Shown here in pieces: positions 21,692 to 51,553 of a stretch of DNA of 64,000 nucleotides. The DNA comes from Amphiscolops sp. MND2022 (lineage: Eukaryota): contig OZ076409.1 of the NCBI GenBank assembly GCA_964187785.1, forward strand, positions 3,040,001-3,104,000. The letters run 5' to 3'. The notes under the pieces are model-generated. The model had not been told where the DNA came from and searched no databases. It saw only the letters and a list, made by a program, of their open reading frames with translations. The position numbers and the translations under genes were made by a program. The stretch's first letter is position 1. Each line of letters starts with the position of its first letter.

Positions 21692-22203
21692 GACAAGGCC
21701 GAAAATATCCCGGTGTTTAGTTGGAACAAGTGACACTGTGAACAAGAAGATCAATGATACTGCTGTGTTTTCTGTTTTTGAAGCGAATAACAGTGGAGAC
21801 TAGTAGTGGGAACATCTCTACTGCCGTGTGGGAGTCAAAAACTTACACCTAAAAACCAATCTTTCCCGTTGAGTCCCTCCTATGAATCAATTTTCCAAAC
21901 CTGTATCGAAACATCCAAATCTCTCTAACAATGTTTTAGATATTTCCCAAGTAATTTTAGATCTTATTTAAGTGATGTTTAAATATTTTATTGATTTTGA
22001 CTTTTTCTTCAGTAACTTTTGGATGTTATTTCAGTAGTTTTAGATTATATTTTGGGTGTGCGTTCATTTTACCCCAAAATCATTTTACCCCATGTCATTT
22101 CACCACATATCATTTCACCCCACATTCATTTCACCCCACGTTCGTTTAACCCCATATTCATTTCACGCCATATTGTAATTATATAAAAGCGTCTAGTCTT
22201 AAT

Positions 22204-25083: not shown

Positions 25084-25159
25084 CTGCGAATTTGTATGCA
25101 ATTGGCTTTTGAAAAGCGTCCCCATCCGAAGCTGATAGTTTAGGTATCGTTTGAATTTC
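25084..25159 (-). CDS. Cadherin-related gene, internal exon b (EIQTIPKLSASDGDAFQKPIAYKFA)
   Basis: caccAG acceptor, GTTAGT donor, 76 bp phase 0/1; AxDGD..IxY motif; phases match both neighbouring exons. Confidence 0.88.
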
Positions 25160-25207
25160 CTGGTGAACACAGCAACAAACAATGCAGAGCTTGAGAACAA
25201 AATTGTA

Positions 25208-25414
25208 CAGTAAACCCTCGATTATCCGCCACCATCGGTCCAGCGCGAATTATGGCGGATAAGTGAGAGTGGCGGTTAATCAAGGGAGCTTAGACACGGG
25301 TGGTATAGCAACATGTCCTCGTAGATTTGTGGCGGCTGACCAAAGGTGGCGGATAATCGTGTGGCGGATAATCGAGTGGCGGATAATCGAGTGCGGATAA
25401 TCGAGGGTTTACTG
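25208..25414. mobile_element. pogo/Tigger-like MITE
   Basis: TIR cagtaaaccctcgattatccgc / gcggataatcgagggtttactg, TA TSD, internal gtggcggataatcg repeats. Confidence 0.85.
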
Positions 25415-28400: not shown

Positions 28401-29050
28401 ATTGGATAAGTTATTTGACTCAATTCTGGCTGGTATTGATTGACAAACAAACTTTAACAACCTAACGTCTGAACTATAATTAGTTCATCCCAGATTGTTG
28501 AAGTTAGGTTCCAATTATTATGTTGGTAGTGAAAAGATTGTATAGCTAATAGGTACGTTTAGGAGGAATAGAACAAGTGTAAATAATTTTTATTCCAGTA
28601 AATCAAAATTTTAAAACTTACAAAAACGTCCATGCGTTGAATACTATAAGTGAAAAATATCCTAACAGTGGGAGGCCATAAAAACTGTAAACGTTTATTT
28701 ATGGCCCCATTCAAAAAAACAAACATCAATGAATAAAACATCTGAGAACCGAGAATGAGACTGAACTGAGCTGTCACTCAAACTGCGTCAAACACGTTTT
28801 CAAACTGTCTCTGATTTATAAAAGAGAAGAACGGAATGTGAATATCTATTTTTTATATGGTTTCAAATTATCAGTCAAATCTGCCGGATGTGTTCTTCGA
28901 AACTGATGTTGATCTGATTGACAAGCGACAAATTTAAACTTAGAAAAATTCTCACAGCTTGTAACGGGAACCTCTGGTATAACGATTTTGCAACTTTGAC
29001 ATGTTCAGAAATTTTCTCAAAAATTCTAATTCGATGTGTGGAGTGATGAC

Positions 29051-29428
29051 TGTCATGCCAGCATGATGGAAATGTAATCTACTTAATATCTGTAATGTAA
29101 ATATTATGTCTTATGTACTTAGATATGGGCAATATGATGTCATATAATAAGGGCCATGGTTGTGAGCAACCCTACGTTACTTGTACTTTAATCCCTTCCC
29201 CTTTTGAGTGTGAGTTATATATATTTATTTAATACTGAGCGCTCTAGTTCCGGTGTCCGCATAAATGATCTTGCCAGAATCTAGCCTTGAAAGTGCTATA
29301 TTTCATAAATATTGGTTTGTCACGACAAGGGAGAGAAGTTTTCCGGTCAGACTGGACCGAGGAATATTGGAAGTAATGGAAAATATAACTTCTACTAACT
29401 CCCCGCCTCAGAGTATGTAGTTGTGACA
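29051..29428. repeat. LTR-like segment (TGTCA...TGACA)
   Basis: Perfect 5-bp inverted termini, TATA/AATAAA-like AT core; no TSD or PBS recognised. Confidence 0.4.
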
Positions 29429-29540
29429 AATTCTATTAAATTCATCACAAATTAATCGTCGAATTTGATGACGATTTTGATCTGATCAGAAATTTCACTT
29501 GGATCCATCAGCGGGTTCAACGGTGCTTTTAACCAAAGTT

Positions 29541-30325
29541 CATCGCAATCCCATCCTTAAAGTTTGCGAGTGAACAAAACATGGGACTTTAAACTGACTT
29601 TCATCAGAAATCCATCAGCGGATTTTATGGGACTTATTCTAGTAAAACTCATCTTTAATTCATCGTGATAATTTCATTTAGTAATTCCTGAATGTGCTTC
29701 TCATTTCTAAAGAACAGTAGTCCATCCTTTATTCATCGCGTTCACTAGTACAGAAGAGAAATGAGAAAGTACATCCTTAATTCATCCTAAAAAGAGTGAA
29801 AGTGCTGGTTATCTGATTTGTTTAGTAAACCCATCCTCAATTCATCTTGATTTCGTTTGTGCTGAAAAGTAACCATTTTAGTGGGTGAGTTCATCCTAAA
29901 ATCATCGCTAAATCGAACTGCTTTAGTATTCGGTGTTTTAACCGGTGAGTTCATCCCAAACTCATCGTCAATTTGTATTGCTCTGGTATTTGCTGTTTTA
30001 AGTGACAAGTTCATCCTAAACCCATCGCCAAAAATCTCCTGTATTAGAATTAGCGTTTATCGACTGAATTCATCCCTAATTCATCGTCATTTGAATCTGT
30101 GCTGGAAATTGACAAATTGTACATGGAGTTCATCCTTTTGTCATCGTCAGTTTGAATTGTGTTGATTTCCGAGCGAGAAAGACTACCATTCATCGCATTT
30201 TCATCCAGAGCTAAACTATACTTGGAAATCAGCAAATATTCTTACAAGTTCATCGCATTTCCATCTTCAAGTTTTAAATCATTGATTTTGGTGCTAGAAT
30301 CAGCGGAAAACATCGTTTTCCCATC
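29541..30325 (-). promoter_or_regulatory. Phased array of 14 CATC-N7-CATC motifs, ~60-bp period, upstream of gag
   Basis: First CATC at 29541, 29602, 29650, 29723, 29772, 29832, 29892, 29952, 30012, 30071, 30131, 30191, 30251, 30311; spacers diverged; regulatory role inferred. Confidence 0.7.
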
Positions 30326-30984
30326 CCAAATTGTGCTTTACCTTAAATTTGCTTGAAATTAGTGCGTTATTGAATAATTTGTGTCCATTTTAGTTACTAT
30401 AGAAACCATGATGTTATGTGCAGGCAATTGCGACACTGTAAATTGATGACTAAACACCATTAACACATGTAGATGTACCATGGTGCGTGGCCACTTTGCG
30501 GCAGTTCACAACACCGGTCACGTGACTTACCATTTTAACACCAGCTGGTAACAGCCAATGAGAGAAGGTTGGTAAGAGATTTAGCGTCTTACCAACCGAA
30601 AAGACACGTGAACTGCTGTAATTTGTACCGCCAATAAATATTACTCAGCCCGAATTGCGACAAGCTACCGACCAGTTGGATATTTTAACACGCAAAAGTC
30701 AGAAAACACATCTCTATTTCATCTTCAGAAATTGAGAAATTTAAACTGAGTAATTTCTTGGTACAACTACGACTGCGATGAACATTGGATGAACTTCTTC
30801 TGAATAACTTGCTAGTTTTCTTTTCCTTATATAACTGCTTACTTATTTGTACGACTACTTTCTAAAACATCTCAGTTCAAATTAGTGAATTTTGGGATCG
30901 AACATTCAGTTAAATCAGCAAGATACATCGAAAACACTTCTCAGATAATTCAGTCTTCACTCATAATTCTTTTCTCTCGAATAC

Positions 30985-32490
30985 ATGAATCCGGACCACG
31001 GCACTGAACTTAGAAGCGGTAGAGTTATACATTCCTCGTCAGGAACATCTTCTCCAATAGATCCAGACATGGCTCAATCGTCCGCCAATGACTCTGACAA
31101 TAACGAACCTTCAGATATCTCGTCCCAATTGTCTGAAATAAAAGAGAACTATGAGAAGAAGATAAATGAGTTACAAAGCGAATTTAGTCAACTGAAGAAC
31201 TTATTGATGGCAGTTATTAGTAAAAATGATGAAAATAACTTACCTTCAACATCGCAAAGTTCTTCAAAGCCGACCCACAGGGTAGGGCTCGACATGGTGA
31301 CAGGAGTTACAGAAACCCGCTCCACCCGCCCGACATCCAGCTTCACAAACTTCAGGCGATACCAGGAAGACGACTCGGACGAAGAAGGTGAATCAACTCC
31401 TAGAAGCAATGAGGAACGACTACTCAATGCAATCGAGACGATCCCCCAACGAATCAAAAGCACCACCACCAACACGAAATTACTACAGACACACGTCCCA
31501 AATTTCAGAGGCCAAAAAGACAAATTCGTGGAATTCGAGCACCTTCTCCTCAACCACCTTAGCCCGCTCGCCAACAAAATCACCGAAGAGAACAAACTCC
31601 ACTTCTTTCAAAGCCTTTTGAGAGATGATGCAATAGAGTACTGGCAATCCATCCAGATAACGCCACTAACAACACTGAAAGATGTGCTCGACCTCTTCAG
31701 GAAAGAATTCGCGAAAGAGGACCTTAAAGAAGTAGCTCGCTACAAATGGGATCAAGCCCGTTACGATCCCACCACAGAAACATTCAGCGACTTCCTCAAA
31801 AACTTGAAAAAGACTGCGAAACAAGCATTTGGGGAAGAAGCGGATAAAATCATCAAAATGTTCTTGTTCGGTAAACTCCCAGTCGAAATACAACAAGAAC
31901 TTACGATGGCCAATAAGGAGGAGAGCTCACCAGAAGAAATCAAGACATACTTGATGAGAAAGTACCAGTACCAACAGTACGTTGCGCCACCTACGACAAT
32001 TCAACCATTTAACGCGGTCACCTCCTCGGTCCCAACGACCAACACAACGATTAAACCAGCAACAACGACGACAACACAACCGACAGAACGAAAACGATTT
32101 GAGGGACAATGCTTCTACTGCGGAAAGACAGGTCACCGCAAAACAGAATGCCGCGCCCGACAACGTGACGAAGCAAACGGCATTAAGAAAGAAGATGCAA
32201 TTCCGATGAAGAAAGCAACCGACACAGACAAACCGAAGTACAATCCCAAGCTGGTTTGCCAGATTTGTGGATACACCGGCCACTCTGCAAGAGACTGCAG
32301 GCGACGCATTCCCAAGGAAAGCAGCTCTGCATATGGAAAGATTCCGTACACAACAAATTCACAGGACGACAACAAGGCTAGACGACAAGATTTAAAACGA
32401 CAGCAAAAGCCGATGAATCCAATGCAAGCAATTACTGAGGACGACGAACAACTAAGCTACTCTGATGAAGACATTAACCAGGGTTTTTGA
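30985..32490 (+). CDS. gag: Gag of element B (501 aa), two CCHC knuckles
   Basis: CFYCGKTGHRKTEC and CQICGYTGHSARDC; capsid-like region; intact ORF. Confidence 0.93.
   Translation: MNPDHGTELRSGRVIHSSSGTSSPIDPDMAQSSANDSDNNEPSDISSQLSEIKENYEKKINELQSEFSQLKNLLMAVISKNDENNLPSTSQSSSKPTHRVGLDMVTGVTETRSTRPTSSFTNFRRYQEDDSDEEGESTPRSNEERLLNAIETIPQRIKSTTTNTKLLQTHVPNFRGQKDKFVEFEHLLLNHLSPLANKITEENKLHFFQSLLRDDAIEYWQSIQITPLTTLKDVLDLFRKEFAKEDLKEVARYKWDQARYDPTTETFSDFLKNLKKTAKQAFGEEADKIIKMFLFGKLPVEIQQELTMANKEESSPEEIKTYLMRKYQYQQYVAPPTTIQPFNAVTSSVPTTNTTIKPATTTTTQPTERKRFEGQCFYCGKTGHRKTECRARQRDEANGIKKEDAIPMKKATDTDKPKYNPKLVCQICGYTGHSARDCRRRIPKESSSAYGKIPYTTNSQDDNKARRQDLKRQQKPMNPMQAITEDDEQLSYSDEDINQGF
32481..32487 (+). 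other. -1 ribosomal frameshift heptamer G GGU UUU at gag-pol junction
   Basis: CAG GGT TTT TGA; the pol ORF is in the -1 frame and overlaps here. Confidence 0.75.
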
Positions 32491-35400
32491 TTCAGCCACG
32501 ATTTCCGCCCGCTAGAAATACAACGCGCGACAAACGACTTTCGACTCAACCGACTACACACAACCGTCCAATGAAGAAATGGCAGCCTTCACTGGACAAA
32601 CGACCAAAAGCTGACGACGTCTATCAGCGAAGACTTTCCAACGATGAAAAAGCGATGGGAATTGCACGTCAAGGCAACGGCAGCCGCTTTTCTCCACTCG
32701 CTGAAATCAACGATGAACAAACGATGAACTGGCAACAAAACACCATGAGGCAGGTGGAAGATGCCAAAGAGATGGAAACCAACCATCTTGACGACGACTC
32801 GACTTCACACTCAACAATCGACAAACGGCTTAGTATTAAAAAACATGCAAAACAGAGTAGTTTTAACGTTTCAAAAGCTAAAAAACATGCAACTAAAACA
32901 GAAATTCACGTTCTCAGTCCCACTTTACACTTAAACAAGAAAGATAAAATGCTTTACGTCCCTCTTCAGTTTGACAAATATGAAAACAGCGCACTTTTAG
33001 ATACAGGCGCAATTCAAAGTGCAATGTCTGAAGCAGAATTGCGAAAAATAACAACGGCTCATCCAGAAGCCATCCTTCAAGAACTCCCCCCTCCGAATTT
33101 CAAAATTCAAATAGCAAACGGGAACTTAGTCCCAGTACGTAAGCAAGTCTTACTTAGATTTTACGTTGCTGGAAAAGTCTTTGAAGAAACGTTCCTAATC
33201 CTTCCAACAATGGGCACAATTTTAATTGGAATGTCATTCTTTGAAAAGTACTCAGTCAATTTAGACATAAAAAACCACCTTGTCCACTTCCCTAATCACA
33301 TGATGTCCATGCAAGTTAGACAGCAAAAGAACAACAGATTCAAAACTGGTTTAATTGATTTGTGTTCCAGTACCAGAACAGTGATCCCTCCTCTCCATCA
33401 AGTGATGATACAGGTCCACAGTGACGCGGACATCTCACTTACAACTGGTACAGTTGAGGGCTCACCTGGATTCATGCGAAAGACGTGTTTGCTTGTTTCT
33501 CCAGCTTTGGTTGACCTAGATGAGGGCAAGACGACAATCCAGGTCACCAACCCGAACAACCACACGTTCACACTTGATGCCAACACCACTCTGGCACACT
33601 TTCGCATACCGACACCACATCAGGCGGCAAACATCACACCCATGCCAGTCGAACACTTGAACCTGATCACCAAGTACCCAGATGAGGCGGAAGCAGTGGT
33701 CAACCAACTGTTCGTGAACCCTGAAATGAAGTCAACTAAGTGGTACCCAACTCCCGAGACGTGCAGTGAGCCAGACAAACTCAACGCAATTGAGCGACGA
33801 ATCTATGATGAGATTCTGGCACTACGAGAGCTCGAGAAGCTTGACCCGTCCCAATCCGATGAACAACGGATGAACTTCCTGAAGAACTTCAACTGGGACG
33901 ACTCGCTTCTTACTCCGTCTCAACGGTTACAGGTAGAGGAGTTGCTGGTAAAGTACAACTCCATTTTTGCTAGACATCGTTTTGATATTGGCGTGAACAC
34001 TGATTTTAAAGTTAAGCTAACACCCCAACATGAAGAACCTGTTTATTCACAAAGTCTCCCTACTCCGACAAATTTGAAGGACGATTTGCTCGTGGAGTTA
34101 GCTTTAATGCAAGAGTACGGGATCATAACTACTTTGCCTCATAGCAAATACTGATCTCCGATATTTGCTCAACGTAAACCAAATGGTAAATTGAGGATTT
34201 TAGTTGACTTGAGAAGAATAAACCACTTGATCAAAAACGATTACGGTGAACACAACCATCCCGTAACAACAATTGCTGACGCTGCCCAACACATGGCCGG
34301 GAAAAAGTATTTCTGTAAACTTGATTGTTCCCAGGCCTACCATTGCATTCCAATGGCCGATGAGCAGTCTGTCCAACTGTTATCGTTTAATTTTGGTTCT
34401 AGAACTTTTGCCTTTTTACGTCTAGCCCAAGGTCTTAACCGTTCTTTGTCAGCATTCACAAGTGTAGTCCGTGAGTATTTGGACCCCTTGGTCAAAGCGG
34501 ACCGATGTGCTCAATATGTTGATGACTTCGGAATTGCAGCACACACCCCTGACGAACTGATTAATAACCTTGAACTTGTTTTTCAGCAGCTGAACAAAGC
34601 CGGTCTTAAACTTAGCATGAGTAAATGTGAATTTGGACAAAAACAAAGTGAGTACTTGGGAAAAACCATTTCTAGCACCGATATTGCTCCCATTGAGAAA
34701 CGAGTAACTGACTATCTGACCAAATTGAAACCCCCCAACTCAGTGAAAGCATTGCAACGTTATCTTGGTTTTGTAAACTTTTACAGGTCTTATATTCCCC
34801 GACTAGCTGATAAAACTTGTTGTTTACAGGAATTGATCAAGAAGGACGTCCCTTTCAAACTGAATCAACAACATAAAGATGCTATTTTTGAAATCAATGA
34901 AAGTTTGTTAAAAGCAACAAAAGTGTCTCTGAAATTGCCATTACCTGATAAACAATTGGTAATCATGTGTGACGCCAGCGAACACGCTGCCGGCTATGTT
35001 TTGTTAATTGAGGATTATGCTGACCCGTCAGTCAAACAAACATACGCCCCTGTTGCATTTGGCTCTAAGAAATTTCAGGGCGGCCAGATGTCTCTAACAA
35101 TGTATGCCAAAGAGTTTTTAGCTACGCACTTTGCCTTCGATGAATTTGGCCACATTCTGTGGGGTGCGAAAAAACCCATCATTGTTATGACTGACAATAA
35201 GGCCTTGACTAGATTTTTTCAGGCGAAGCATATCCCGCCTTCACTTTGGAATTTTTGCGATCAAACCCTTCAGTTCAATTTTTTATTAGCAAGGAGTTGA
35301 AAATCCCGCAGCGGACTACTTATCTCGGCTTGAGATTAGACCTGAAGACCGTGTACATTTAAAATTGACTGATACTATTCCAATTCACAGGATCGAGATC

Positions 35401-37572
35401 GACATCGCCTCCCGTACACCAAAACAGGAGGAAGACGAGCCTGATTACTTTCCCACGAGCGAACCACTCAGATGCAAACGCCAGAAGGATGTCAAAGAGA
35501 TGAAATTGGCAACTGGCACTCACGTGGCTCATGACGATGGGAAAGGGATGAAGTTCACCAACTGTGAGAGAACAGCGGCCTCAGATGACTTCGCGACTGA
35601 CAACCATCTGACGTACCGCCTCACAGACGTGGACGAGCCAATTCAACTCTCGCAATTCATCCGTAAAGTATCATTATCACACCCGGTAATGAGTCAGGTT
35701 AGCCCCGCTGAGGGGATCGATCTAATTCAGGTCCAGAAAAATAACTGGGTTATTCAAAAAATGATTAGATTTTTAGAAGGTACTGAAATTTTGCAACACC
35801 CAGTTAATATGCAAGATCAGTTTTTTCAAAAGTTGCACAAAAATCGAAAACGCCTACAAGTTGTAAACGGTGTCTTGTACAGACAGTTTTTTGATCACAC
35901 GGGACTGGAGTCTCACAAGCAGTTAGTTGTTCCTGAAGACTGTATTTTGAAAATAATTAGGACTCTACATAACAGCCCGGTACAAGGACACCCTGGTTTA
36001 AAGAAAATGTTCTACGAACTTCGTAAAAGATATTACTCTCCTAACTTAGCCTGTAAAGTTCAAAAAGTCCTTGACGGATGTGAAAACTGCATGAAATCTA
36101 AAAGTGTAAAAGAAACGCAACTACGTCCACCGTTACAAAAAATCTACGACCCGTGCGACGGACCAGAAGACCTGTTGGAAATAGACATCGTTGGTCCACT
36201 CCCGGCGTCGAACGGTTTTACACACATTCTGACGGCTGTTGACGTTTTTTCACGCTACCTGTTCGCCGTTCCGCTGAAGAGACCTGATACACATTCCGTA
36301 GTCAGAGGATTACTGTCGATCTTCACGAAACACGCGTATGTGCCCAAGCACATTCTGACGGACAAGGGCACGGCGTTCACGGCTGAACTTCTGTCTGAAA
36401 TCGCGAAAGCGGCTGATATTCACATCTCCCATGCCACGATAAAGCACGCACAGACAATAGGCATGGTGGAGAGAACGCACGCGAAACTGAAAAAGATCCT
36501 TAAAATTAGTGTAAACGCAGACCGACCACAATGGGACCGCTATGTCGACATAGCAATCATGGCCCATAACACAACGTATCATGATTCACTGAAATGTTCA
36601 CCAACTGAAATTTTCCACGGAAGAACACCATACAACCCACTAGATCTGCAATTCCGAAACGCAAACAAACCGGCTGAAACAAAGTGCAAGGACGTGAACG
36701 AAATTCTAGACAAAATGAACTTCATCTTCAGAGACAATCTAGATAACATCATTTCCGCCTATCATAAGTACAAAACGTACTATGATAGAAAAGCACGAGC
36801 ACAGCCACTGAAGGTGAATGAATTTGTGTTCCTACTAGATCCTAAGTACGACTCTCAGAGAAGCAAAGAAGAGTTTAAAACGTTCCATTTGAAAGGACCG
36901 TACAAGGTGATCAAAGTGCTATCCGATAGCAACTACATCATCCGCAAAGTAGGCACACACCAAACTCAGTGCGTACACAGAATGCGACTGAGGTTGTTCA
37001 AACCGGAATTTCCGATTGATGACATCAACGTGTCCAAACATCTCTACCCAGACACTGAAAGGGTTGAAGACACGGACATTTTCGACTCGAATATTCCGAC
37101 AACCGACGAAGTAGATCAGAATGAGAATGACAATCTAGATCAAAACTTAGTCGAAGAAGAGCCTTCAGAAGAAATAATTCCACAGGTACAAGAACGACAC
37201 AGTCCACAAGTAATTCCTCCAGAAATAACCACGAGAATAGATTATCAGCAAGTAGAAACTGACCACAACAACTTTAGACCACCTACAGTTAGATTTGGAA
37301 CGCAAGAGGAAATTATTCTACCGCCCCCCCGCGATGAAAGTAGGATAAGAGTACCTCTGAGAGACGAACAACACGAAAATCAGTCACAACAGACAAACAC
37401 GCAAAGTGAAGATGAGGAAAGGATGAGTTCTAGACCTTCTAGAAACAATCAAAGTAGGTACAGGTTACGCGAAAACCCTACACCGAAAAAATATCCTGAC
37501 TTCCTTATTCATGAGATTACATCAGCCAGAAACTCTCTGAGAAAGACCAACAAAGTAAACGTAACGAGTTAG
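32487..37572 (+). pseudogene. pol: Pol of element B (protease, RT, RNase H, integrase), disrupted
   Basis: LDTGA, YVDD, CDAS, HHCC/DDE integrase, GPY; in-frame TGA at 34152-34154 and a small deletion/frameshift near 35290. Confidence 0.93.
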
Positions 37573-37600
37573 CCAAGAAAAACAACATTTCAAAACACAC

Positions 37601-39447
37601 GATGTGTTAAAGATGAACAATTCACAAAAACGAGTCAATTACATGCAATTTCAATTTAAAATGAACATGAAGATGTAAAATGGATGAAAAGTTACTAAAA
37701 ATCACATGAAAAACGCATAAAAACAAAACACGATGTAAAACGGATGAAAAACGACCAAAAAACCAGAAAAAACAACACACAAAAATTTGAGATGAAAAAA
37801 GGATGAAATCACATGAAAATTTAGCTCAGACACACGAGAGATGAAAAAGTGATGAACTCAGTCAAAAATTCGACCAATCAACATGCAATATTTACTAGCG
37901 ATGCATTTGAGATGGAAAATACCATCAGAATGCGAACGCACTCACGTTCATGCTATCATAAGACTCTAGCTCGGCTAGAGGATGAAATAGCGATGAACTC
38001 GATCCAATTATTCATAAATTACATGAAATCAATTAACGAGATGAATTTGTGATGGACACTACCATCAAATCGTGACCGAATTTATCGTTAACCTGACACA
38101 ATACTCTAGCTTCGCTGGAGGATGTCAAAACGATGAATTTAGTCTAAATGGAAGTTCGAAAATATTAAATGACTTACCAAAAACTCCTTGCGGTGGGAAA
38201 CACCATCAACATAACATCACAATAAATCAGCTAACTCTCAAACAACATGTAACTCCACGAAACGATAAAAAACAACCGACTTTATTTCGAATCATGCAAA
38301 CAGAATTATGCGACACAAAAAAGAAATGATCAATACATGTAAAGTTCAAAGACCTGCCAAATCAATGACGTCACGAAAGAAATTGAAAATTCCAAACTAC
38401 ATGCAATACAAATGAGTAACACACGGAAATATACATGAACCGTTTAAAAACGAACAAGATAATATATGCAATTCACACCAAAGCCATCCAAACCTAGACG
38501 AATAAAAATGAAACAAACAATCGAAAATACATGAAGCCTAATAACTTACATGCAAAATATAAGAACTGACGAAACACCTACAAAACGAATAAAGGAGTGA
38601 GCACCCCCCAGCAAACATCAGTTCATAACAAGCAAAACACCCCTATCGAGAAGCCAAAAACATTCCTTCGTGCTGGCTGGCATTTCTCTGAAAAGAGTGC
38701 TGGTTAGTTGAGGCGGGGAGCTCACAACCATATTCGGATGAAGCTTGCTGCGTTGGTTATCCAGCGGCTAGTGGATTCTCAGTTAGTTTTGTAGGGGCTT
38801 TGAGACGACAAAGCCCTGTCCAAATTGACGAACAAAATCAAGAAATAACCAACATGCAAATAATGGGGTAACCCATTAAAAGATTACATTATGAAAATAC
38901 CACGAACACCAAAACGACATGTAAAATTAAAAAGAGAATGAAAATCATACTGAGACAGTATAAAATGAGTAAAACATGCACATACCATATGAAAAGTACA
39001 TTCCCGAAAACGTCAGAGTCACATAGCCACGAAAACGCACAAAATTACAAAATTGCAAAATTACGATGAAAAGAAGATGAACTATACCGCAAAACGAGCA
39101 AAAAACTTGCCAAGTCAAACTTGCGATGCAAAAACGATGAATTACACCAAAAAACTAGCAAAAATGCAAAAATTAAAAGGCAAGATGAAAAAACGATGAA
39201 CTATGTAGAAAAATCACATGTAACAAACATGCAATGAATCGCATATAACAAACGATGTAAAAAAGATGAGAAATCAGTTTTCGCAACGTCGCTCGGCCGA
39301 CCGAGGAAAACGTGATGAAAATGAGATGAGAAATCAAAAATGAAACGCTACCGAATCACCTACACTCCCACGAGATGTAATAACGATGATTACCGCAAAA
39401 AGACTAGCTGAGAATTGTGACAACGCAAAAACGATGTGAAAACGATG
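37601..39447 (+). promoter_or_regulatory. Two phased GATG-N7-GATG arrays (9 + 7 copies) between pol and the accessory gene
   Basis: 37601, 37672, 37732, 37791, 37840, 37900, 37981, 38040, 38121; 39065, 39125, 39184, 39254, 39314, 39374, 39433. Confidence 0.7.
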
Positions 39448-39754
39448 CTAATTGAAATTTGGAACTCTGAATGACGTGACCTAACAGCAGAAACTAATGA
39501 TCCGCAAACCTAACCTGCCTACGACCTCAAAAACTAACTAGTATCTCAAGAGAAAAACAATTCGGGTGCCACATCATTTAACTTGTAAATACAAGCTACC
39601 GAACTTTCCGACGTAGCCTTTTAATTTTCCCCCTCCCAGTATTCTCATTTCTCTTGGCAACACATTATGATAACAAAATACTAACTATAATATAAAATCA
39701 AGCAAAGCAATACAAAAGTTTCAAACAACGGAGTTTACAGTTGGATCTCAAACA

Positions 39755-42700
39755 TTAATTGCCGATCTCCGGACTGGCAGCTCGTTCCCCACTAAGCGTG
39801 TATCCTAGCTTCGCATACAATTGGAGACGATAATCTTCTCCGGCCACAATTCCGATGTCGTCCCACAACATACCCTCGTCCAGCTCCGCCAAATTGACCA
39901 ATCGTCGATGTGACTCAGTCACTTCCTCTAACAAACGGCCGCTCACACTGTCATAACTTTGGATATGATTAGCAGACAAATAGGCCAAAATCACAGCACA
40001 AACACAACTCGCGACATCGCTACTTAACTGCCCAAATCCATCGCAGCAAAGACTGCTTCTGCTCTGAACTCCTCCATCTAGGCATAAAACACTGCGAAGC
40101 AGATTCTGAGCGCCACCACTAGAACAATGGCGAAGAAGATCGATGACAGAACAACCCTCTGTACGTCCTGCTAGTCCCGGGTCACGTCGGATATTGACAA
40201 GGAAATCCAGAAAGCCACGTTCCATCCGACCCTGCTCCGCACGGGTGATCCGACCCAGATCCACAAGCACATCAGTGAAAATCCTGATCTCGTCTAATAG
40301 GACGTCCTCTGCAACAAAACTCAGACAGGGCATACTGAAAACACTGCGCACAAACGACAGATCGTCTCGCACACCTGGCAGATTGATAACAGTCTTCACA
40401 ACGGTTAGAATGAAAACCGGAACAAGTGACAAATCCTCTTCATATAGAGCGGCATTCGAGCCTTGATCGTCCACACAACGAAATCCGTCCAGCAACACCT
40501 GATGTTTCACTTCTGAGATTTCATAGCTTTCCACATTCAGAAAGAGCCATCCACGAATGTCCAATTCCGATGGTAGCTTTTCTTCCTCTACTAGCATCAT
40601 CATCAGTGACTTCACAAAGGCAGCACTCTCAATTGCCCAGTAGCACGCGCGCAACGTCGAAGACCCAAAACTCTTCTCGTAGGAGCTGATCACTGAAAAA
40701 CACGAATCACAATTATCACAAGAAACAACCAGGTTTAACATTACACCCACAACCGTATAGCTTCCAACTCGATCTCAACAAAAAAACCAAAACCCCCCGT
40801 AACTTACAGAACTAAAGTATTACTAACAAGCACAGTACACAAGACCAAGAACACGGAGTCTAATCGGAATGCCGACCTCAGCACGTAGTGTCAAGTCTAA
40901 GGCATCCAAAGGCCCTTCACCACTAGCGAAGCGTAGCAAGCATAAGATGTCAGACCAGTTCGTCCGTAACTCCTCGCACACATCGGCCAGGGTCCAAATG
41001 TACACCTCGCCGGTAACAATCGCCTAAAATGTAAATAATACCATCCCAATCAATTCGATAAAATCAAACAATTACATCACGCCTACACACCTGCACAACA
41101 CTAAAATTATTACATCAACCAATTCTCTAATATACTACGTACTTGCAGAAGTTGAGGGCATCCTAGCAACAGAGGATCTTTCACGTATCCTTTGAGACGT
41201 TTCTGTAAATGGTTCAGTACCACGTGAATGTCTGTACCCCCCAGCACTGATCCGGCCACATCCACAATTGCCCGACTGACATCTGACAGACCCAGAGACT
41301 TCACGTCCAATGATCCGACTCCTGTGCTGCTTCGAAAGAGCCCACCCAGCTGCGGCAACTCATCGCAACACAGTCCAAGTGGGACTGGCTCACCGAGCAT
41401 ACAGCACCACATGTTCACTAGCCATGTGATTACCCTGCTTTCCCAGTCTCGAGCCACACTGAAGCTATACACACAGTAGTGCTTGACCCCGTCTAACACA
41501 CACACTGTAACAGTCCCTGTCACGCGCCCTCCCACAACTGACAAATGGAAGCTACTGTAAGTGCTATCGGTCCAGACAGTGATCAGTCGCCGCATCACGT
41601 ACGGCCACAGCCCTAATACGATCACGCTCTAAAACAAAAACGCTGTGAATAAAACATAAAAATAGCATCCACCCTACCCCCCACCCACTACTAAAACTAG
41701 AAGAACACATAATGGCCAAAAGTATGACTAAAAAACATACGAGTAGACGCTTACCATGACATCGTTCAATCCGCATTGCGCCCCAAACAAAACCGCATGT
41801 TGGGGATCGGAAGCCACCAACACTTCCCACAGGTTCGTGACACTGGCAAACTGACAATCACGATATAGGGCGTCCACAACAAAGCAAATAAACAGACGAA
41901 CAGTTCGCTCTGGCCAGTCTTCCCCTTCCTCTTCGTCGCCCCACACAGGTCGTCCAGCACCCTCCAACTCGAAAACTTCCACCACATTAAGTGATGGACA
42001 GGTCTCTATGAAAGGCACGGACACCCCCTCCAGGTTCACACGGCATTCTGCACTTTCGTCACTTGTCATGAGAGTTCCATCACGTCGCCGCAACGGTAGC
42101 CCTCGGTGCAGCCGTACCACACAATCCAGCCGATGATGGCCTAGGCCTCGGCAGTGCTCCATAAAGGTGGTAATCCCTCGGCTGCCCACCTTAACATCTC
42201 TCTTGCACATTAGACATCGCACATACGACATGCGCGACTCGTGATTGCGTGAATATCCTAGCGCCAGCCCGCAGTATGGATGATCAAACCATCCAGACTT
42301 GATCACTTTCTTTCCTGATAATCACAACCACACAATATAGCAAAAGTAATACCATTACAAACCATCATAGACAACGACTAAAATCATCTGTTACACATCA
42401 GAAAAATCGAAAAATGCAAAAGTCACAAGTAAAAACCAAAAAAGTTCACCCGGAGTGATGAAAACATGATGTAAAATAATATTTTCATTGGAAATATAAG
42501 CGAAAAACGAAGAAAAAACGAAAAGATGAAAAAGAGATGTGTTTGCACACCACCAGAATGAAAAATGGAAACTTTAAAGAATGAAAAACTCGAACGATGG
42601 AAAAGAGATGAATAGAACGACTTTAAACCAAAATTGAGATATTTTAGAGCGAAAACAACTTAACGATGAAAACGAGATGTAAACTGAAAAGAAAACACTG

Positions 42701-44422
42701 AAAAATAGCGAAAACCGAAACGAGGAATTTTAAAGATGTAAAAGAGATGGAAAGTTCTAAAAAAGGACCAGAGAGCGAAAAGACTATTGTTCAAAACTTT
42801 TGACGATGAGAAAGTGATGGAAAATGGAAAACTGCAGAAAACCATATAGTCAAAACAGAAAAACAATGGAAAATGGATAGAAAAGAAGAAAAACGTGAAA
42901 AATGCTAGTGAAAGTAAAAACGAAGAAGGAAATGAATGAAAATCTACTGATCAGATACTTCACCGGTTTAAAGCTGTTTAGTTAACCTGGCAGACGAGAT
43001 GCAATGGGCTCGTCATCGGAGTCCAACAGGCTGGGTCCCATTGGAGACGTCTCGATGTCAGCAGTAGCCACATTGGACGCAACACTCCCTGGAGCAGACA
43101 CGCCAGACGGAGGACTACGAAATGAGAAATCGTCAGGGATTTCCAGTAGGGTCTCGGTGGTGCCAGCTGAGGGAACTTCGGACGGGGCAACGTCAACGTC
43201 AACTGCCCCAGGAACATCAGCAATCGGTGGAGGAGGAGAAGACGGTGGAGTAATCGCTGGAGGATCATAGCAGGTAGCAGCAACTCCAGTTTCAGTGACA
43301 GCTTGGACAGTTTGATCTGCAACGCCCACACAGGCATTGATGGCCATGTCTCTACAATCGACAACAGCATTTACAGCAGCGTCGAGAGTAATACGAGCAG
43401 GAGGAGGACTAGCAACGGTGAAAGATCGCCTCAACACTGGCGACAGTACAGACACTGGCGCCTGCCTGACAGGAGAACTCACTCCAGTTAGCGACAGTTC
43501 ATTGAGGAACGAGGAGAGGTTGAGTTGAGGAGGCCCTCCTTGTGTGCTGACGTCAACGCTGCCATCACCGAAGTCACTGGTCCCGATCCCGATAGAATAG
43601 GTGATGGGACGCGGTCTCGGGGCATGGATAGGCGTTGGACCTGAAAGAAGGAAACAGAAATCAGACGACGACGAATGAAGAAGAAAGTGCGCGTACGCCG
43701 CGCGAAGAAAGAAGACAGGAGAAGAATTCATCTCAAATCCATCCTCAAAATGGAATTCGCAACGAATCAGCCATGAAAACTGTGGATATTCATGATACAT
43801 CCTAAATTCATCCTAAAAATGATTTTTATGAGGTAACCGACCGCGAAGGGCACTACATGCAGATGAGATGTTTACATCGGAATTACATCGGAGTGTCCGG
43901 ACGATGCCTTAGTACAGGAGGAAAGTAAAATGGAGTCAACTCACTAAATTGCTGGATGCTATCTCGTAGCATGTCCCGCATGTGGCGATCATACCACCCG
44001 AAGGTGATGCTACCGAGGGAGGCATACCAGGGATAGTGATCTAAACAGTAACGGAAAGAGTCAGCGTCTGAATGGATCGGGGATGAGAAAAGAAGAGATT
44101 GTAGACTGAGATGATGATCTGAAAGGAAAGAACTTACACTGCGGAAGATACGGGACGTTAGGGGCCTGTTCAATTTGCTGCTCAGGTTGATACTGAGGTG
44201 CGGGAGATGCTGCATGGATTGGAGCCTCTTGAGGCGGAACTGTCTGCAATGTAGTCAGCTCGGAAATGATGCCGACAGAGTGAACGGAGTCCGCTAAAAC
44301 CAAGACACGCCTTCAGTTCCTAATTATTCCCTAACCCGTTTATGAAGAAGAGAAAAAATAGTGCACTTACTTTCTGTGGCCTCGGTCTCCGGTAACGAAT
44401 AGACGGAGTGGATATCCGACAT
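39755..44422 (-). CDS. Antisense 7-exon accessory gene of element B, predicted 1013 aa (S/T/P-rich N-terminus, CxxC..H..H Zn finger, hAT-like helical body)
   Basis: Exons 44422-44371, 44293-44138, 43640-42987, 42314-41755, 41628-41143, 41023-40828, 40692-39755; all GT-AG with compatible phases, 3042 nt with no internal stop; the exon-3 donor (CAG/GTTAAC) is weak. Confidence 0.78.
42457..42819 (+). promoter_or_regulatory. Six GATG-N7-GATG motifs, ~70-bp period, in intron 3 of the accessory gene
   Basis: 42457, 42525, 42596, 42665, 42735, 42805. Confidence 0.7.
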
Positions 44423-45190
44423 CGTGAAGAATTGCAAAACAATCTGAAAAGGAACGGAAGAGAGTGAAGAAAGGAACGAAATCGAAGAATCTGAGGACAA
44501 GAATTTGATCAGTAATTAAATGGCCTGATCAACCATGATTGCGAGATTACAAATTCACGAAAAACTTTAAAGAGCGCGAATGCTGCTTGAGCGACAGGAC
44601 AAACCAAATACTTGAAATTCAGAAGATGAAAAATCGATGAAAACTCTCCGATTTCAATGACTCTCTACACTTTTCTTCCCAGTTTCAACCAACTTAGCAA
44701 TTTTCTCTGAAAATGAATCGCCCCCCAGAATTTGACTACAAAAGCTTCAAGTATTTGATTTTGATGACAGTTGCCAGTCTCAGATCAATGCCGACGAAGT
44801 TGAGCGGAAACGCGCAAAGGAAATCGTGGCGATTTTCAAAACCGACTTGACGGAAGATGATTCACGGATGAGAATGTTTGTTAACAACCGGTTGAGTTTC
44901 CTCCAGTTCTGAAAATTCAGTTTTCCGCCAATCAGAATTTAGCAGCAGTTGCTATGGCGACGATTTCATCTCTTTCTCATCGCTGAGAAAATCAGACAGC
45001 GGAAGCGACAGTGACGGTTGCTATGACAACAAAATCATCTCTTTCCTATCGCGGAGATTGACAGAGCGGCGGCGCCAGCCGTCTGTTATGTCAACATCGA
45101 TGTCTCGCTGAGTAAACAATTCATCGTTCATTCATCCCGGGAAACTTCGGCAGACAAGAAATGGCGCCGATTTACTGCCAAATTGTCAAC

Positions 45191-45390
45191 NNNNNNNNNN
45201 NNNNNNNNNNNNNNNNNNNNNNNNNNNNNNNNNNNNNNNNNNNNNNNNNNNNNNNNNNNNNNNNNNNNNNNNNNNNNNNNNNNNNNNNNNNNNNNNNNNN
45301 NNNNNNNNNNNNNNNNNNNNNNNNNNNNNNNNNNNNNNNNNNNNNNNNNNNNNNNNNNNNNNNNNNNNNNNNNNNNNNNNNNNNNNNNNN
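45191..45390. other. Assembly gap (200 N)
   Basis: N run. Confidence 1.
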
Positions 45391-45403: not shown

Positions 45404-48400
45404 AAATCAGGTATTGAAACTCCTAGTTGCGTCGCTACTCCGTATTATTTGTTGAAACCGTTTTTGTTCGGGCAATTCCATTTCCTAATTGAGTCTCAAA
45501 ATTCCTGTAAAATAAAATTCTAGCTGAAATTTTCATCGACGAAAGCACGCCGGCGTGATCAATTAGTCACTTCCCAAGTTAGGAAATTAATGTTCGAAGT
45601 AAAAGTATGACACTCAAAAATATCGACGGAAATGAAGCAGAGTAAAGGAATTCGGAAAATGGGAAATACCTAAATACTGGAAAGGAACAAACGATGCTGA
45701 AACGAGAATATCGAAATTATCAATACAGAGAAATATTCATCATACTTTTAACAATAGTATGGGCTAAACACAAACATTAACAATTACAACGAGGACAACC
45801 CGTTGTATAAAACATAATCACCGTCAAAATTAGAAAATAGTGTAAAACTCCCAGTTATCAAAATAAGCAACAAACTAGCATAGAATTAGTAGCATCTCAT
45901 GATTGCAGTAGTGACACAATCTCAGAAAATTGCAAGAGGACATTTGGAAAATGAATTGATCTTACGTTGCATCTTCGGTCTTTTTGTCAAAAATAAATCT
46001 TGCATAAGATGGAATTATTCAATTGGAACTCTTCTGCCAATGAAATAATTCCAACGTAAGTCAAACGTGGTTTTTGTCATCAGTGAAATGTGCACTTTGC
46101 CTTATTTCAATCATTGTATTCAGTGAGGAATGGGCAGAACTAAGTATATTGAGAGTAGCATCATGAGGCTGCTTTGATATCATTGGGGAAATTGACACCA
46201 TTATGGGGTTTTGAATTACAAAATAGAATTGCACGTAACGTAAAACAAACGTAAAATCAAAATCACGTTGTGTTTGTTTCATCACTAACTTATTACCAAG
46301 TTACCTTTTTAATCTTCCTTACAGTACAGCTTTTCTTATATGAAATCCTGTTCCAAAATTCTCTTAAATGCGTCGGTTCAAAAAGGAACTGCGTCAGAAT
46401 CTCGTTTGTACCAATACTTCATATCTGCAGTTGTACAATGTGCTCCGTAAATGCTCCGTACGTATTAGGATTAGTTATAGCTGAGCGGCGGTGGCTGGCG
46501 GAGCGGAAGCGGAGGGCGTAGGTGAATTCTTTCTTTTTCTCTCAGCTAATTGGCGTTGCTAGGGGTAACCAAGCGTGATTTCTATTAGCTCTAGCTCAAA
46601 TAGATCATTTAGGGAACAGCACTATTGGTCCGCAAAAATAGAAACACCCATTACTAGCTTAGTTGAGTGACGCTGTCATAACGTTGTAAACATTGGTTTA
46701 AAACCACTTGACTGAGGTTTCAAGCGGATATTTGACAACTACTTTAACACTGGAAAAACAACTCCTCTATATTTTGTATGTTTTCCATTTTAGATCGTAT
46801 GAAGTCCGTTGGGATCTCGGAGTTAAACCTTGTTGCTAATGTTTTCATTTCAGTGTGGAAAAGAAGAGAAAAATGATCCCATTTTAGAAAATGTCTCTCT
46901 GTTATTATTTAGATTTGTATGGAAAAATCAGATAAAGAAACCGAAAAAAAAAGAAATAGCGTTGCGCGTGAGAATATTTGACCGGAAGTTTTAGTTAGTC
47001 CAAAATCAATTCTAAAAAGATTCCGTGACGCTTACGGCGTGTTTCGTAACTGAAAATTACCTACAAATAGTTTAGCTGAACTGTAAGTAAAATTAGGTTC
47101 TCTTACTCATTATTGTTAGTTCTGTAGTTTGATAGTTCGGTTCTAATGGTACTTGCAGTACCCTCGGCCGCGTCTTCTTCCTATCGCGTAGCACCAGTCG
47201 CAACCACGTCCGGGAGCGGGCTAGAAACGCGGGCAGTCCGTGGCAATGGGGATTTTTTTGATCTGCACTCGGGGGCGGCTGGTGTACCTTCTAATTTGAT
47301 GGGGGCCACGACCACGGCCGACGGACATGTAGACGTCTTTTTTTCTTCTCTCTCGAGCTCTAGCGGCAACTTTGCGAAATACTCTTTGGCTTCAGGGGTG
47401 CACCAAGCATTCTTATAATCTTCGGCAAATTCAAATCTCGTGCGGAGCTCGTTTAGGTCATTTAGGCTGTTTGTCACTGGGGCGTCTGAATCACGGGAAG
47501 GCCACACAGGGGATGGTCTTAGAGGAGCGTCAGGTTCTTCATAGTAGTCCATCTCTGAGTCTGATCCCTTTGTTGTTGGCAAGTTTGGCAAGTTAAATTT
47601 CACCTTTTTTGTTTTTTATCTTCTAGATAGGGCTGATTTTCAATTTCTTCGGCGAACAGCCGAAATCAAAAGTCGTCTCGTACTCAGGATCGCTCCCGCG
47701 GAAGACTTCCGTAGATGAGTCGCTTGGGTTAGCTTTCTCCACCATATTTACTAGAGAGTTTTTATTGGTGTACTTCTCCTTACATTCTCTTAATCCGAGG
47801 AGTTGTCGATAACAAGCGAATATCCGTTCATTGTTTTTTGATTATTTTTCAGGAATTTCTTGTTTGAGAGGGTGAAGGATTTCGAAAAAAATGAGACAAA
47901 TATTGCAAGCTCGTCAGGCAGGAAATTGGACGACAAATGACCGTTTTAATTTCCTTTCAGTCGTAGCTTTCTTCGAGTTTTGTTGGTCCGTTTTTCCGCT
48001 TTCGTGTCGGTCCGTCCTGACCTTTTAGGGCGACGAACTTCTATCCTCGTTGTGATTGGTCAATAAGATGGATTAAAATAGGAAATTTTCATCTTAATTC
48101 CGTTTTCCTTCATCAGCGTCGTTATGACGTCATCAATTTTCTCGAGAAGGTTACTTTCACGGAACGTAACTTCTAAAATGGTTTTTAAGAAGGCTTTCTT
48201 CAGAGCTTCTTGATGAACTTTTATTCACTAGTAGGATTTTTTGGAAACGTTTTGTTCCCAACAATGCCGTAATAGCCTTTTCAGTGAAGTTGAAGAATAT
48301 GCATCTTTCCTGAATACGTAGGGATGACGTTGCTAATTTCTTTTGGTTGGTTACGTTCACACAACGCGATTTTCTTTCCTTGATTTTCCTTTTCTTTTTA

Positions 48401-51400
48401 GATTGTCTTGAAGATGGTCCCGCTGTTCTTGGTTTTGTGGAGATGGGAGACGAAAAATTTTTTCCTCCTACAGTTCCTCCAAATCAGGTATTGAAACTCC
48501 TAGTTGCGTCGCTACTCCGTATTATTTGTTGAAATCGTTTTTGTTCAGGCAATTCCATTTCCTAATTGAGTCTCAAAATTCCTGTAAAATAAAATTCTAG
48601 CTGAAGTTTTCATCGACGAAAGCACGCCGGCGTGATCAATTAGTCACTTCCCAAGTTAGGAAATTAATGTTCGAAGTAAAAGTATGACACTCAAAAATAT
48701 CGACGGAAATGAAGCAGAGTAAAGGAATTCGGAAAATGGGAAATACCTAAATACTGGAAAGGAACAAACGATGCTGAAACGAGAATATCGAAATTATCAA
48801 TGCAAACAAATATTCATCATACTTTTAACAATAGTATGGGTTAAACACAAACATTAACAATTACAACGAGGACAACCCGTTGTATAAAACATAATCACCG
48901 TCAAAATTAGAAAATAGTGTAAAACTCCCAGTTATCAAAATAAGCAACAAACTAGCATCGAATTAGTAGCATCTCATGATTGCAGTAGTGACACAAACTC
49001 AGAAAATGGCAAGAGGACATTTGGAAAATGAATTGATCTTACGTTGCATCTTCGGTCTTATTGTCAAAAATAAATCTTGCATAAGATGGAATTATTCAAT
49101 TGGAACTCTTCTGCCAATGAATTAGTTGCAACGTAAGTCAAACGTGACTTTTGTCATCAGTGAAATGTGCACTTTGCCTTATTACAATCATTGTATTCAG
49201 TGAGGAATGGGCAGAACTAAGTATATTGAGAGTAGCATCATGAGGCTGCTTTGATATCATTGGGGAAATTGACACCATTATGGGGTTTTCAATTACAAAA
49301 TAGAATTGCATGTAACGTAAAACAAACGTAAAATTAAAATCACGTTATGTTTGTTTCATCACTAACTGATTACCAAGTTACCTTTTTAATCTTCCTTACA
49401 GTACAGCTTTTCTTATATGAAATCCTGTTCCAAAAATCTTTTAAATGCGTCGGTTCAAAAAGGAACTGCGTCAGAATCTCGTTTGTACGAATACTTCATA
49501 TCTGCAGTTGTACAATGTGCTCCGTAAATGCTCCGTACGTATTAGGATTAGTTATAGCTGAGCGGCGGTGGCTGGCGGAGCGGAAGCGGAGGGCGTAGGT
49601 GAATTCTTTCTTTTTCTCTCAGCTAATTGGCGTTGCTAGGGGTAACCAAGCGTGATTTCTATTAGCTCTAGCTCAAATAGATCATTTAGGGAACAGCGCT
49701 ATTGGTCCGCAAAAATAGAAACACCCATTACTAGCTTAGTTGAGTGACGCTGTCATAACGTTGTAAACATTGGTTTAAAACCACTTGACTGAGGTTTTAA
49801 GCGGATATTTGACAACTACGTTAACACTGGAAAAACAACTCCTCTATATTTTGTATGTTTTCCATTTTAGATCGTATGAAGTCCGTTGGGATCTCGGAGT
49901 TAAACCTTGTTGCTAATGTTTTCATTTCAGTGTGGAAAAGAAGAGAAAAACGATCCCATTTTAGAAAATGTCTCTCTGTTATTATTTAGATTTGTATGGA
50001 AAAATCAGAATATGAAACCGAAAAAAGGAAATAGCGTTGCGCGTGAGAATATTTGACCGGAAGTTTTAGTTAGTCCAAAATCAATTCTAAAAAGATTCCG
50101 TGACGCTTACGGCGTGTTTTGTAACTGAAAATTACCTACAAATAGTTTAGCTGAACTGTAAGTAAAATTAGGTTCTCTTACTCATTATTGTTAGTTCTGT
50201 AGTTTGATAGTTCGGTTCTAATGGTACTTGCAGTACCCTCGGCCGCGTCCTCTTCCTATCGCGTAGCACCAGTCGCAACCACAACCGGGAGCGGGCTAGA
50301 AACGCGGGCAGTCCGTGGCAATGGGGGTTTTTTTTGATCTGCACTCGGGGGCGGCTGGTGTACTTTCTAATTTGATGGGGGCCACGACCACGGCCGACGG
50401 ACAAGTAGACGTCTTTTTTTCTTCTCTCTCGAGCTCTAGCGTCAACTTTGCGGAATACTCTTTGGCTTCAGGGGTGCACCAAGCATTCTTATAATCTTCG
50501 GCAATTTCCAATCTCGTGCGGAGCTCGTTTAGGTCATTTAGGCTGTTTGTCACTGGGGCGTCTGAATCACGGGAAGGCCACACAGGGGATGGTCTTAGAG
50601 GAGAGTCAGGTTCTTCATAGTAGTCCATCTCTGAGTCTGATCCCTTTGTTGTTGGCAAGTTTGGCAAATTAAATTTCACCTTTTTTTTTCTTTTTTATCT
50701 TCTAGATAGGGCTGATTTTCAATTTCTTCGGCGAACAGCCGAAATCAAAAGTCGTCTCGTACTCAGGATCGCTCCCGCGGAAGACTTCCGTAGATGAGTC
50801 GCTTGGGTTAGCTTTCTCCACCATATTTACTAGAGAGTTTTTATTGGTGTACTTCTCCTTACATTCTCTTCATCCGAGGAGATGTCGATAACAAGCGAAT
50901 ATCCGTTCATTGTTTTTTGATTATTTTTCAGGAATTTCTTGTTTGAGAGGGTGAATGATTTCGAAAAAAATGAGACAAATATTGCAAGCTCGTCAGGCAG
51001 GAAATTGGACGACAAATGACCGTTTTAATTTCCTTTCAGTCGTAGCTTTCTTCGAGTTTTGTTGGTCCGTTTTTCCGCTTTCGTGTCGGTCCGTCCTGAC
51101 CTTTTAGGGCGACGAACTTCTATCCTCGTTGTGATTGGTCAATAAGATGGATTAAAATAGGAAATTTTCATCTTAATTCCGTTTTCCTTCATCAGCGTCG
51201 TTATGACGTCATCAATTTTCTCGAGAAGGTTACTTTCACGGAACGTAATTTCTAAAATGGTTTTTAAGAAGGCTTTCTTCAGAGCTTCTTGATGAACTTT
51301 CATTCACCAGTAGGATTTTTTGGAAACGTTTTGTTCCCAACAATGCCGTAATAGGCTTTTCAGTGAAGTTGAAGAAGATGTATCTTTCCTGAATACGTAG

Positions 51401-51553
51401 GGATGACGTTGCTAATTTCTTTTGGATGGTTACGTTCACACAACGCGATTTTCTTTCCTTGATTTTCCTTTTCTTTTTAGATTGTCTTGAAGATTGTCCC
51501 GCTATTCTTGGTTTTGTGGAGATGGGAGACGAAAAATTGTTTCCCCCTACAGT
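45404..51553. repeat. ~3.07-kb tandem duplication, units 45404-48474 and 48481-51553
   Basis: Colinear near-identical copies with scattered SNPs; 6-nt filler tcctcc at the junction. Confidence 0.93.

Follow-up and report, generated by a model that had tools for sequence, protein, structure and literature searches.

What keeps a short split motif, GATG-N7-GATG, recurring at regular distances through DNA that otherwise shares little sequence? We searched the window, that is, the whole 64-kb stretch of DNA analysed, for exact copies on both strands, taking the expectation from 100 dinucleotide shuffles. We found 57 copies in the window, where 1.99 ± 1.53 were expected and no shuffle gave more than 6. 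All but one of these (56/57) lie within 28900-45200, inside one Ty3/gypsy element, and the motif is absent from the left 28.9 kb of the window, which comprises flanking host DNA and other elements. GATG pairs with any other gap from 0 to 15 gave only 0-2 dyads each in 28900-45200.

Sixteen copies with gaps of 49, 59-60, 70-71 and 81 bp had been reported for 37601-39447 in a preliminary description of this DNA, and the exact search reproduced both the count and the gaps. These plus-strand copies form two arrays. Nine (array A1, 37601-38135) directly follow the pol stop, with gaps of 71, 60, 59, 49, 60, 81, 59 and 81 bp that include a 141-bp higher-order duplication, and seven (array A2, 39065-39447) have gaps of 60, 59, 70, 60, 60 and 59 bp. 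A single orientation throughout this region, as first described, holds for the sixteen but not for one minus-strand copy at 38204-38218, 83 bp past the last A1 copy. The opposite orientation of the 5′ array was borne out: all 14 copies, spaced mainly at a 60-bp period between the putative LTR and gag (29541-30325), are on the minus strand. The suggestion that two inverted clusters bracket gag-pol was correct as to their orientations but incomplete, as further copies lie on both strands in the gag and pol linkers, in two introns of a predicted antisense gene, and upstream. Among these are two copies in inverted orientation 68 bp apart upstream of gag (30709-30791); array A3 (42385-42819), wholly within antisense intron 4, with six copies spaced at 68-71 bp on the plus strand and one on the minus strand; three minus-strand copies in antisense intron 3 (43729-43889; gaps of 69 and 77 bp); and four copies, two per strand, 5′ of the predicted antisense start codon (44625-45136).

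The motif itself extends only weakly into its flanks, as an A/T-rich middle and an AA following the second half. One-mismatch dyads numbered 21 against 56 perfect ones in the element, or 1.29 per kb compared with 0.69 and 0.81 per kb outside it. The array spacers are mostly unrelated, as had been claimed, with z > 3 in only 14 of 496 spacer pairs, but the two 81-bp gaps of A1 derive from one 141-bp duplication event (37840-37997 versus 37981-38137, 72%; self-BLAST). A second local duplication lies in the 5′ array (29876-30031, 76%; self-BLAST). Perfect dyads in excess of one-mismatch dyads, set in unrelated spacers, are the pattern expected from selection on the motif and on spacer length. Two other origins for the motif were considered and rejected. 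The focal element showed no enrichment of GACG dyads or of mixed dyads, so GATG does not appear to be a decayed GACG. Slippage in steps of the 11-bp period of the motif was judged to predict triple GATG copies, none of which occurs among the copies listed.

A second motif, ACATG, is enriched in and between A1 and A2, with 17 copies in 37573-39500 where 5.3 were expected (maximum 12 in 500 simulations). The cluster spans 37641-39231 on the plus strand, and its distance to the dyads varies. Between the two arrays, the GC-richer stretch at 38590-38840 folded no better than its shuffles (z = −1.4 and −1.0).

The step between sites is helical. Thirty-seven same-strand gaps are shorter than 130 bp, and their classes have means of 48.4, 59.8, 70.0 and 79.7 bp (the last is 81 without an outlier of 77), with 19 of the 37 in the class of 59-61 bp. 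A linear fit gave gap = 10.42 n − 2.97. The resultant length for the 14 gaps of A1 and A2 was 0.965 (the best over periods of 9.8-10.7 bp), which was matched by none of 20,000 uniform sets, and when runs of equal gaps were collapsed to 18 events the phasing was matched by none of 50,000. In the strictest version of the test, the 59-61 bp class was dropped as the possible product of a single tandem ancestor and the other classes were counted once per array. Even so, 11 of 13 gaps were ≤2 bp from 60 bp plus k turns (12 of 13 at a period of 11 bp; P = 0.0002-0.002).

Such quantisation points to a protein acting on double-stranded DNA. The gaps had initially been described as near multiples of 10 bp that keep the sites on about the same face of the helix. 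They are indeed quantised, in steps of about 10.4 bp, but a shared face requires a helical repeat of about 10.0 bp. With a repeat of 10.5 bp, neighbouring sites in the four gap classes are rotated by −141, −110, −120 and −103 degrees, a fixed nonzero offset.

By its domain order, the motif-bearing stretch is a Ty3/gypsy element, with gag, protease, reverse transcriptase (RT), RNase H and integrase in sequence. Pfam matches ran zf-CCHC, gag-asp_proteas (E = 4.5e-4, below the cut-off), RVT_1, RT_RNaseH, Integrase_H2C2 and rve. Gag (30967-32490, plus strand) carries zinc knuckles and one motif copy, at 32194. Pol is on the same strand in three parts. The first (32478-34154) spans a linker, the aspartic protease and the start of RT, ends at a stop inside RT (34152-34154), and contains exact motif copies at 32643, 32712, 32760, 33060 and 33858. 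The second (34155-35300) covers RT and RNase H. The third (35290-37572), in a different frame, comprises the linker between RNase H and integrase (RH-IN linker), the integrase and a C-terminal tail, with motif copies at 35488 and 35536 in the linker, 48 bp apart, and at 37411 in the tail. This copy's pol is thus interrupted by both the stop inside RT and the frame change near 35290-35300.

The 5′ LTR (28961-29428, plus strand) is putative and identified only from its TGT...ACA ends: self-BLAST found no second LTR copy within the window, and the 3′ end of the element reaches an N gap (45191-45390). After the putative LTR we saw no canonical tRNA primer site. By eye, the reverse complement of 38701-38732 matches two separate 11-12-nt pieces of this LTR (about 29156-29167 and about 29398-29409), which are contiguous at 38701-38732; since no canonical primer site follows the LTR, the match could relate to priming or strand transfer.

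Relatives of the RT are numerous (2,464 matches), and the best 120 of the 2,464 are all ENA proteins. A search of metagenome contigs with the RT returned only three distant loci (27-32% identity), which lack the motif, and a search of viral contigs returned none. Eight viral-contig loci from a scan for a three-dyad pattern were rejected as unrelated, the matched stretches appearing to be ordinary near-identical tandem repeats.

All nine motif copies in gag and pol are in the frame that reads D-x-x-x-M (or H-x-x-x-I for the other strand), and the gaps between copies in coding linkers are 48, 48 and 69 bp, the in-frame values adjoining 49 and 70. At the two RH-IN linker sites, which are 16 codons apart, the D and M were kept in 14 of 18 close relatives at one site and 13 of 15 at the other; none of 5 distant relatives kept the D-x-x-x-M footprint at either site. 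Across residues 62-94, 15 distinct relatives had almost only the motif codons in common, and most flanking residues differed. The relatives that keep this footprint belong mostly to one subfamily and are therefore not independent. Two sites in the protease linker were kept in both relatives that cover them (2/2), those at 33060 and 33858 were not conserved (0/2 and 1/7 close relatives), and three of the nine sites had no covering relative. Protein-level constraint is a possible cause of the linker conservation. A count of D-x-x-x-M in the pol of relatives is not a clean test, because a neighbouring control pattern rises too (51 and 55).

Downstream of pol, on the minus strand, we predict an accessory gene at 39755-44422 with eight GT-AG exons in compatible phases and 1,036 codons plus a stop. 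Its predicted exons 1-4 are at 44422-44371, 44293-44138, 44040-43945 and 43640-42987, and exons 5-8 at 42314-41755, 41628-41143, 41023-40855 and 40692-39755. The predicted spliced frame has no internal stops; of its boundaries, we are least sure of the exon 7 donor. None of the motif copies falls in these exons; seven are in intron 4, three in intron 3 and four upstream. Antisense placement would let the introns survive reverse transcription of the sense RNA.

Exon 5 (41755-42314) encodes a Cx2C-x16-H-x5-H zinc finger followed by helices, to be read as BED/CGGBP1-like by a weak assignment. Its relatives comprise 41 clusters at 54-98% identity, and 91 representatives were recovered by profile search. 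The AlphaFold model of the finger is beta-beta-alpha with pLDDT >90. The zf-BED family (PF02892) matched 11 of 31 exon 5 family members (best E = 0.002), the top PDB profile match was the finger of ZBED2 (E = 0.043), and Atlas neighbours at 0.90-0.92 were CGGBP1-like, zf-C2H2_12 and zf-BED. A Pfam scan of the finger gave no match reaching a family cut-off, and Foldseek returned nothing at E ≤ 0.001, with the Hermes transposase second at E = 2.2. A wide structural search of the finger region was filled by helical hairpins. In structural alignment, U1/matrin-type splicing-factor fingers scored higher (Z = 3.8; rmsd 1.9 over 47 residues) than BED fingers (Z = 2.2). Four weak lines from sequence and model thus suggest a BED/CGGBP1-type finger, with the U1/matrin alignment against it.

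Exon 8 (39755-40692) encodes a helical C-terminal region with 20 related clusters at 37-99% identity; the clusters examined reach 84 members for exon 5 and 46 for exon 8. The exon 8 model had low confidence (pLDDT 50) and no clear fold match, and an Atlas search gave low scores only. Neither exon 6 nor exon 8 matched a hAT catalytic core (the RNase H-like DDE core or the C-terminal dimerisation domain), so a hAT origin of the whole antisense protein is unproven.

The opportunity to compare finger and motif comes from a second gypsy element in the window, which with its 3′ region occupies 48481-62200 on the minus strand. The two elements belong to sister clades (SH-aLRT of 99 for the split) in a quick tree of 103 rows and 100 columns, from which 18 of 120 relatives that do not cover the stretch were left out. 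When all 3-mers were examined at lags of 4-30 in the second element, the strongest signal was ACG at lag 11, with 46 occurrences against 6.5 expected. By comparison with these 46 ACG-N8-ACG dyads, the focal element has 8 and the left 28.9 kb has 1; ATG-N8-ATG occurs 72 times in the focal element, 7 times in the second and 17 times in the left 28.9 kb. Mixed ATG/ACG dyads were not enriched. The second element holds one GATG dyad, at 61281. Thus the 11-bp period is common to both elements and the core differs (GATG versus ACG). The ACG dyads are dispersed and do not form phased arrays, so that phasing is demonstrated only in the focal element.

The second element also has an antisense gene, whose zinc-finger exon (52600-53172, plus strand) is homologous to focal exon 5 (26% identity over 80 aa; pairwise E = 5e-6). 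The two fingers differ in the seven residues before the first His. According to the parts of the Hermes report covered, base contacts of the BED finger are made by these positions, and its site is 4 bp followed by A/T-rich DNA (PMC10368747). Among 161 proteins examined we found 79 fingers, of which 47 carry the focal version of the seven residues, and the 79 include 25 further loop sequences besides the commonest. Co-variation of finger and motif is seen here in two elements. The sister exon aligned with focal exon 8 over 203 columns at 23% identity (E = 0.095), which is a lead only, and exon 6 matched neither the sister ORF nor the transposase of a hAT-like element in the window.

That hAT-like DNA transposon lies at 22063-25422; its minus-strand ORFs are transposase-like, with a weak zf-BED match (E = 0.32), and its 16-bp subterminal repeats form inverted arrays. 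Several other features surround the two gypsy elements. Cadherin-like exons on the minus strand (9646-9903, 20537-20749 and 21259-21408; Pfam Cadherin E = 6.5e-5, below the cut-off) suggest an animal host, with the left part of the window occupying introns of one of its cadherin genes. A third gypsy-like fragment, AT-rich and with a Retrotrans_gag domain (643-5814, minus strand), has no 11-bp dyad signal. A 1.78-kb tandem duplication (97.8%) at 13738-17281 carries in each copy a 32-nt palindrome of GTTTAAAC units. A tRNA-like sequence at about 21605-21690 resembles a SINE head and was uncalled by ARAGORN or Rfam, both of which gave no matches across the whole window. To the right of the gap, 45404-51553 is a 3,077-bp tandem duplication (97.8% identical) with 15 ACG-N8-ACG dyads per unit against 1.5 expected; these dyads mark it as likely part of the 3′ region of the second element, or as an assembly duplicate beside the gap. 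What we take to be LINE-like endonuclease/RT remains, noted by eye from familiar motifs, adjoin the 5′ end of the second element at 62300-64000 on the minus strand.

On balance, the sequence inclines us to think that the GATG-N7-GATG arrays are probably family-specific binding sites for the element's own predicted antisense protein, in the manner of VANDAL/VANC. A zinc-finger protein encoded antisense on the Ty3/gypsy element would coat its own element and keep it open and transcribed. Each finger would recognise a single 4-bp GATG together with the A/T-rich bases that follow, and a dimer or oligomer would place two fingers on one face of the helix, 11 bp (one turn) from each other. Contact between neighbouring units 49, 60, 70 or 81 bp apart would be possible only when their distance changes by whole turns, and this would explain why the length of the spacers is fixed but their sequence free. 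Finger and motif would co-evolve, so that each family reads only its own copies. Self-binding of this kind would account for the confinement of the motif, for invariant cores set among free spacers at quantised distances, for the arrays in the leader and the introns, and for the core swap. Splicing, DNA binding and oligomerisation of the antisense product are inferred. Looping between the 5′ and 3′ arrays is compatible with self-binding and hypothetical.

The least certain step is the outcome, and an activating or anti-silencing effect is tentative, at rather less than an even chance. It is drawn by analogy with VANC and from a report, seen in part, that transposases and their catalytically dead derivatives act as sequence-specific activators (10.64898/2026.08.24.746577). 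CpG observed/expected ratios in these elements were 0.81-1.22, that is, without depletion, and a VANC-like action against DNA methylation is therefore unsupported. Any anti-silencing would more likely act against histone-level repression than against DNA methylation.

The best-surviving alternative, although an unlikely one, is that the motifs are sites of host transcription factors or of an insulator-like host protein, and that the antisense gene has some other role. Retroelements gather host sites in the 5′ leader and in the region after pol, and Drosophila gypsy, which carries su(Hw) sites, offers an insulator-like precedent. The array positions fit these usual locations, phasing would suit any cooperative DNA-binding protein, and the enrichment of ACATG shows that more than one factor may act. 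However, sister clades with different cores and an identical 11-bp period would need two host factors of the same geometry. The finger that differs between the clades is encoded by the element itself, and host DNA in the left 28.9 kb lacks the motif, as do the other elements there.

It is very unlikely that DNA shape alone is responsible, with phased A-tracts bending the DNA or positioning or excluding nucleosomes and GATG incidental. With the motifs masked, AAA/TTT runs peaked at a 9.9-bp period in A2 and A3 but at about 12 bp in A1 and the 5′ array, and the null for these periods, a base shuffle, was too lenient because shuffling breaks A-tracts. The 60- and 70-bp classes would be in register at 10.0 bp per turn, but shape leaves unexplained the eight invariant bases, the exact gap of seven, the copies in coding linkers and the ACG version.

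More improbable still is a role in RNA, in which the 5′ CAUC array would pair with the 3′ GAUG arrays, perhaps bound by a U1/matrin-type double-stranded RNA finger, in circularisation or packaging. Eleven nucleotides make one A-form turn, the 5′ and 3′ arrays have opposite orientations, single copies are 90-95% complementary over 20-22 nt, and the finger model aligns slightly better with U1/matrin-type than with BED fingers. Against this, spacers of the 5′ array compared with those of the 3′ arrays reached z > 3 in 0 of 104 pairs for A1, about 1% of 78 for A2 and about 3% of 65 for A3. The spacers are thus non-complementary and no long duplex forms, and unpaired RNA spacers would lack helical quantisation. 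Duplex energies were lower than for shuffled targets, but this follows from the motif itself, and the 3′ region holds both orientations. Least probable of all is that a 60-bp unit was duplicated in tandem and the arrays are what neutral decay has left of it, as the local duplications (29876-30031 and 37840-38137) and the predominance of 59-61 bp gaps might suggest, since decay would hit motif and spacer alike, yet there are 56 perfect dyads among mostly unrelated spacers, the gaps other than 60 bp sit on whole-turn steps, and the coding-linker copies persist across subfamilies. Duplication is likely the source of the arrays and not the reason for their retention.

If the arrays do bind the element's own antisense protein, an animal retrotransposon would be seen to regulate itself in a sequence-specific way, and the many diverged variants of the finger would allow its residues to be matched to motifs across clades. 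The window combines a candidate protein with a well-defined candidate site and a naturally occurring change of specificity, so the proposal could be tested with two fingers and two probes. A broader scenario remains doubtful: that an animal Ty3/gypsy lineage captured a transposase-derived finger gene, kept its introns by holding it antisense, and uses it as a private lock and key, with an oligomer forming a helically phased lattice that keeps its own element active against host silencing, and with finger and motif switching together (GATG versus ACG) on a fixed 11-bp scaffold. In that case, plant VANC anti-silencing would have its equivalent in an animal retrotransposon, and the pairs of finger and motif would amount to a natural code table for the specificity of BED-like fingers.

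We compared the proposed system with known ones. In the parts of PMC5735166 covered, VANC motifs are family-specific, dense, in one orientation, located in non-coding parts including introns of accessory genes, and built by tandem duplication, and VANC binds a contiguous 9-bp motif and removes DNA methylation. The focal element resembles VANDAL in pairing an element-encoded protein with a short motif dense in non-coding parts, here in two elements. VANDAL is a plant Mutator-like DNA transposon, whereas this is an LTR retrotransposon with a C2H2 finger in what is likely an animal host, and in place of a contiguous 9-bp site it has a split 4+4 motif with whole-turn gaps and undepleted CpG. VANC is related to MAIN, according to the part of PMC13547354 covered, and the VANC (MAIN-related) Pfam family was not found in the accessory exons scanned. 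The focal element would function like VANDAL/VANC under our proposal, by analogy, and is not a member of that group, being a retrotransposon with a different protein.

In the Retand, Grande and RIRE2 plant Ty3/gypsy elements, the stretch from pol to the 3′ LTR contains antisense ORFs (Transposase_28) as well as tandem arrays, both with a function stated as unknown in the parts of PMC11963269 and PMC7264820 covered, and fungal Boty with brtn has a comparable antisense gene (PMC7264820, in part). The focal element is like the Retand lineage, as described in those parts, in its long region from pol to the 3′ LTR, its conserved antisense gene predicted to be DNA-binding and its family-specific arrays. 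It differs in having eight predicted exons, a zinc finger and a likely animal rather than flowering-plant host, and its antisense ORFs had no Pfam match to Transposase_28 (PF04195). Retand repeats are homogeneous and tandem, unlike a fixed dyad with free spacers of quantised length. Unlike the Retand reports, as far as covered, the sister element here ties a change of finger to a change of motif.

With Hermes, a hAT element (PMC10368747, in part), the focal element shares a Cx2C...H finger with a recognition helix and a 4-bp site followed by A/T-rich DNA; its sites likewise face opposite ways at either end, and in our proposal many sites would be read cooperatively by an oligomer. Unlike those of hAT elements, the focal sites lie in the interior of a retrotransposon, in which we saw no terminal inverted repeats. 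We found no description of this element group in the literature covered, and the parts of PMC13547354 and PMC3597677 covered describe no such system. As far as the cited papers were covered, antisense accessory genes and arrays after pol are known from plant and fungal gypsy elements, and what is added here is a candidate protein, its candidate site and a natural swap of specificity.
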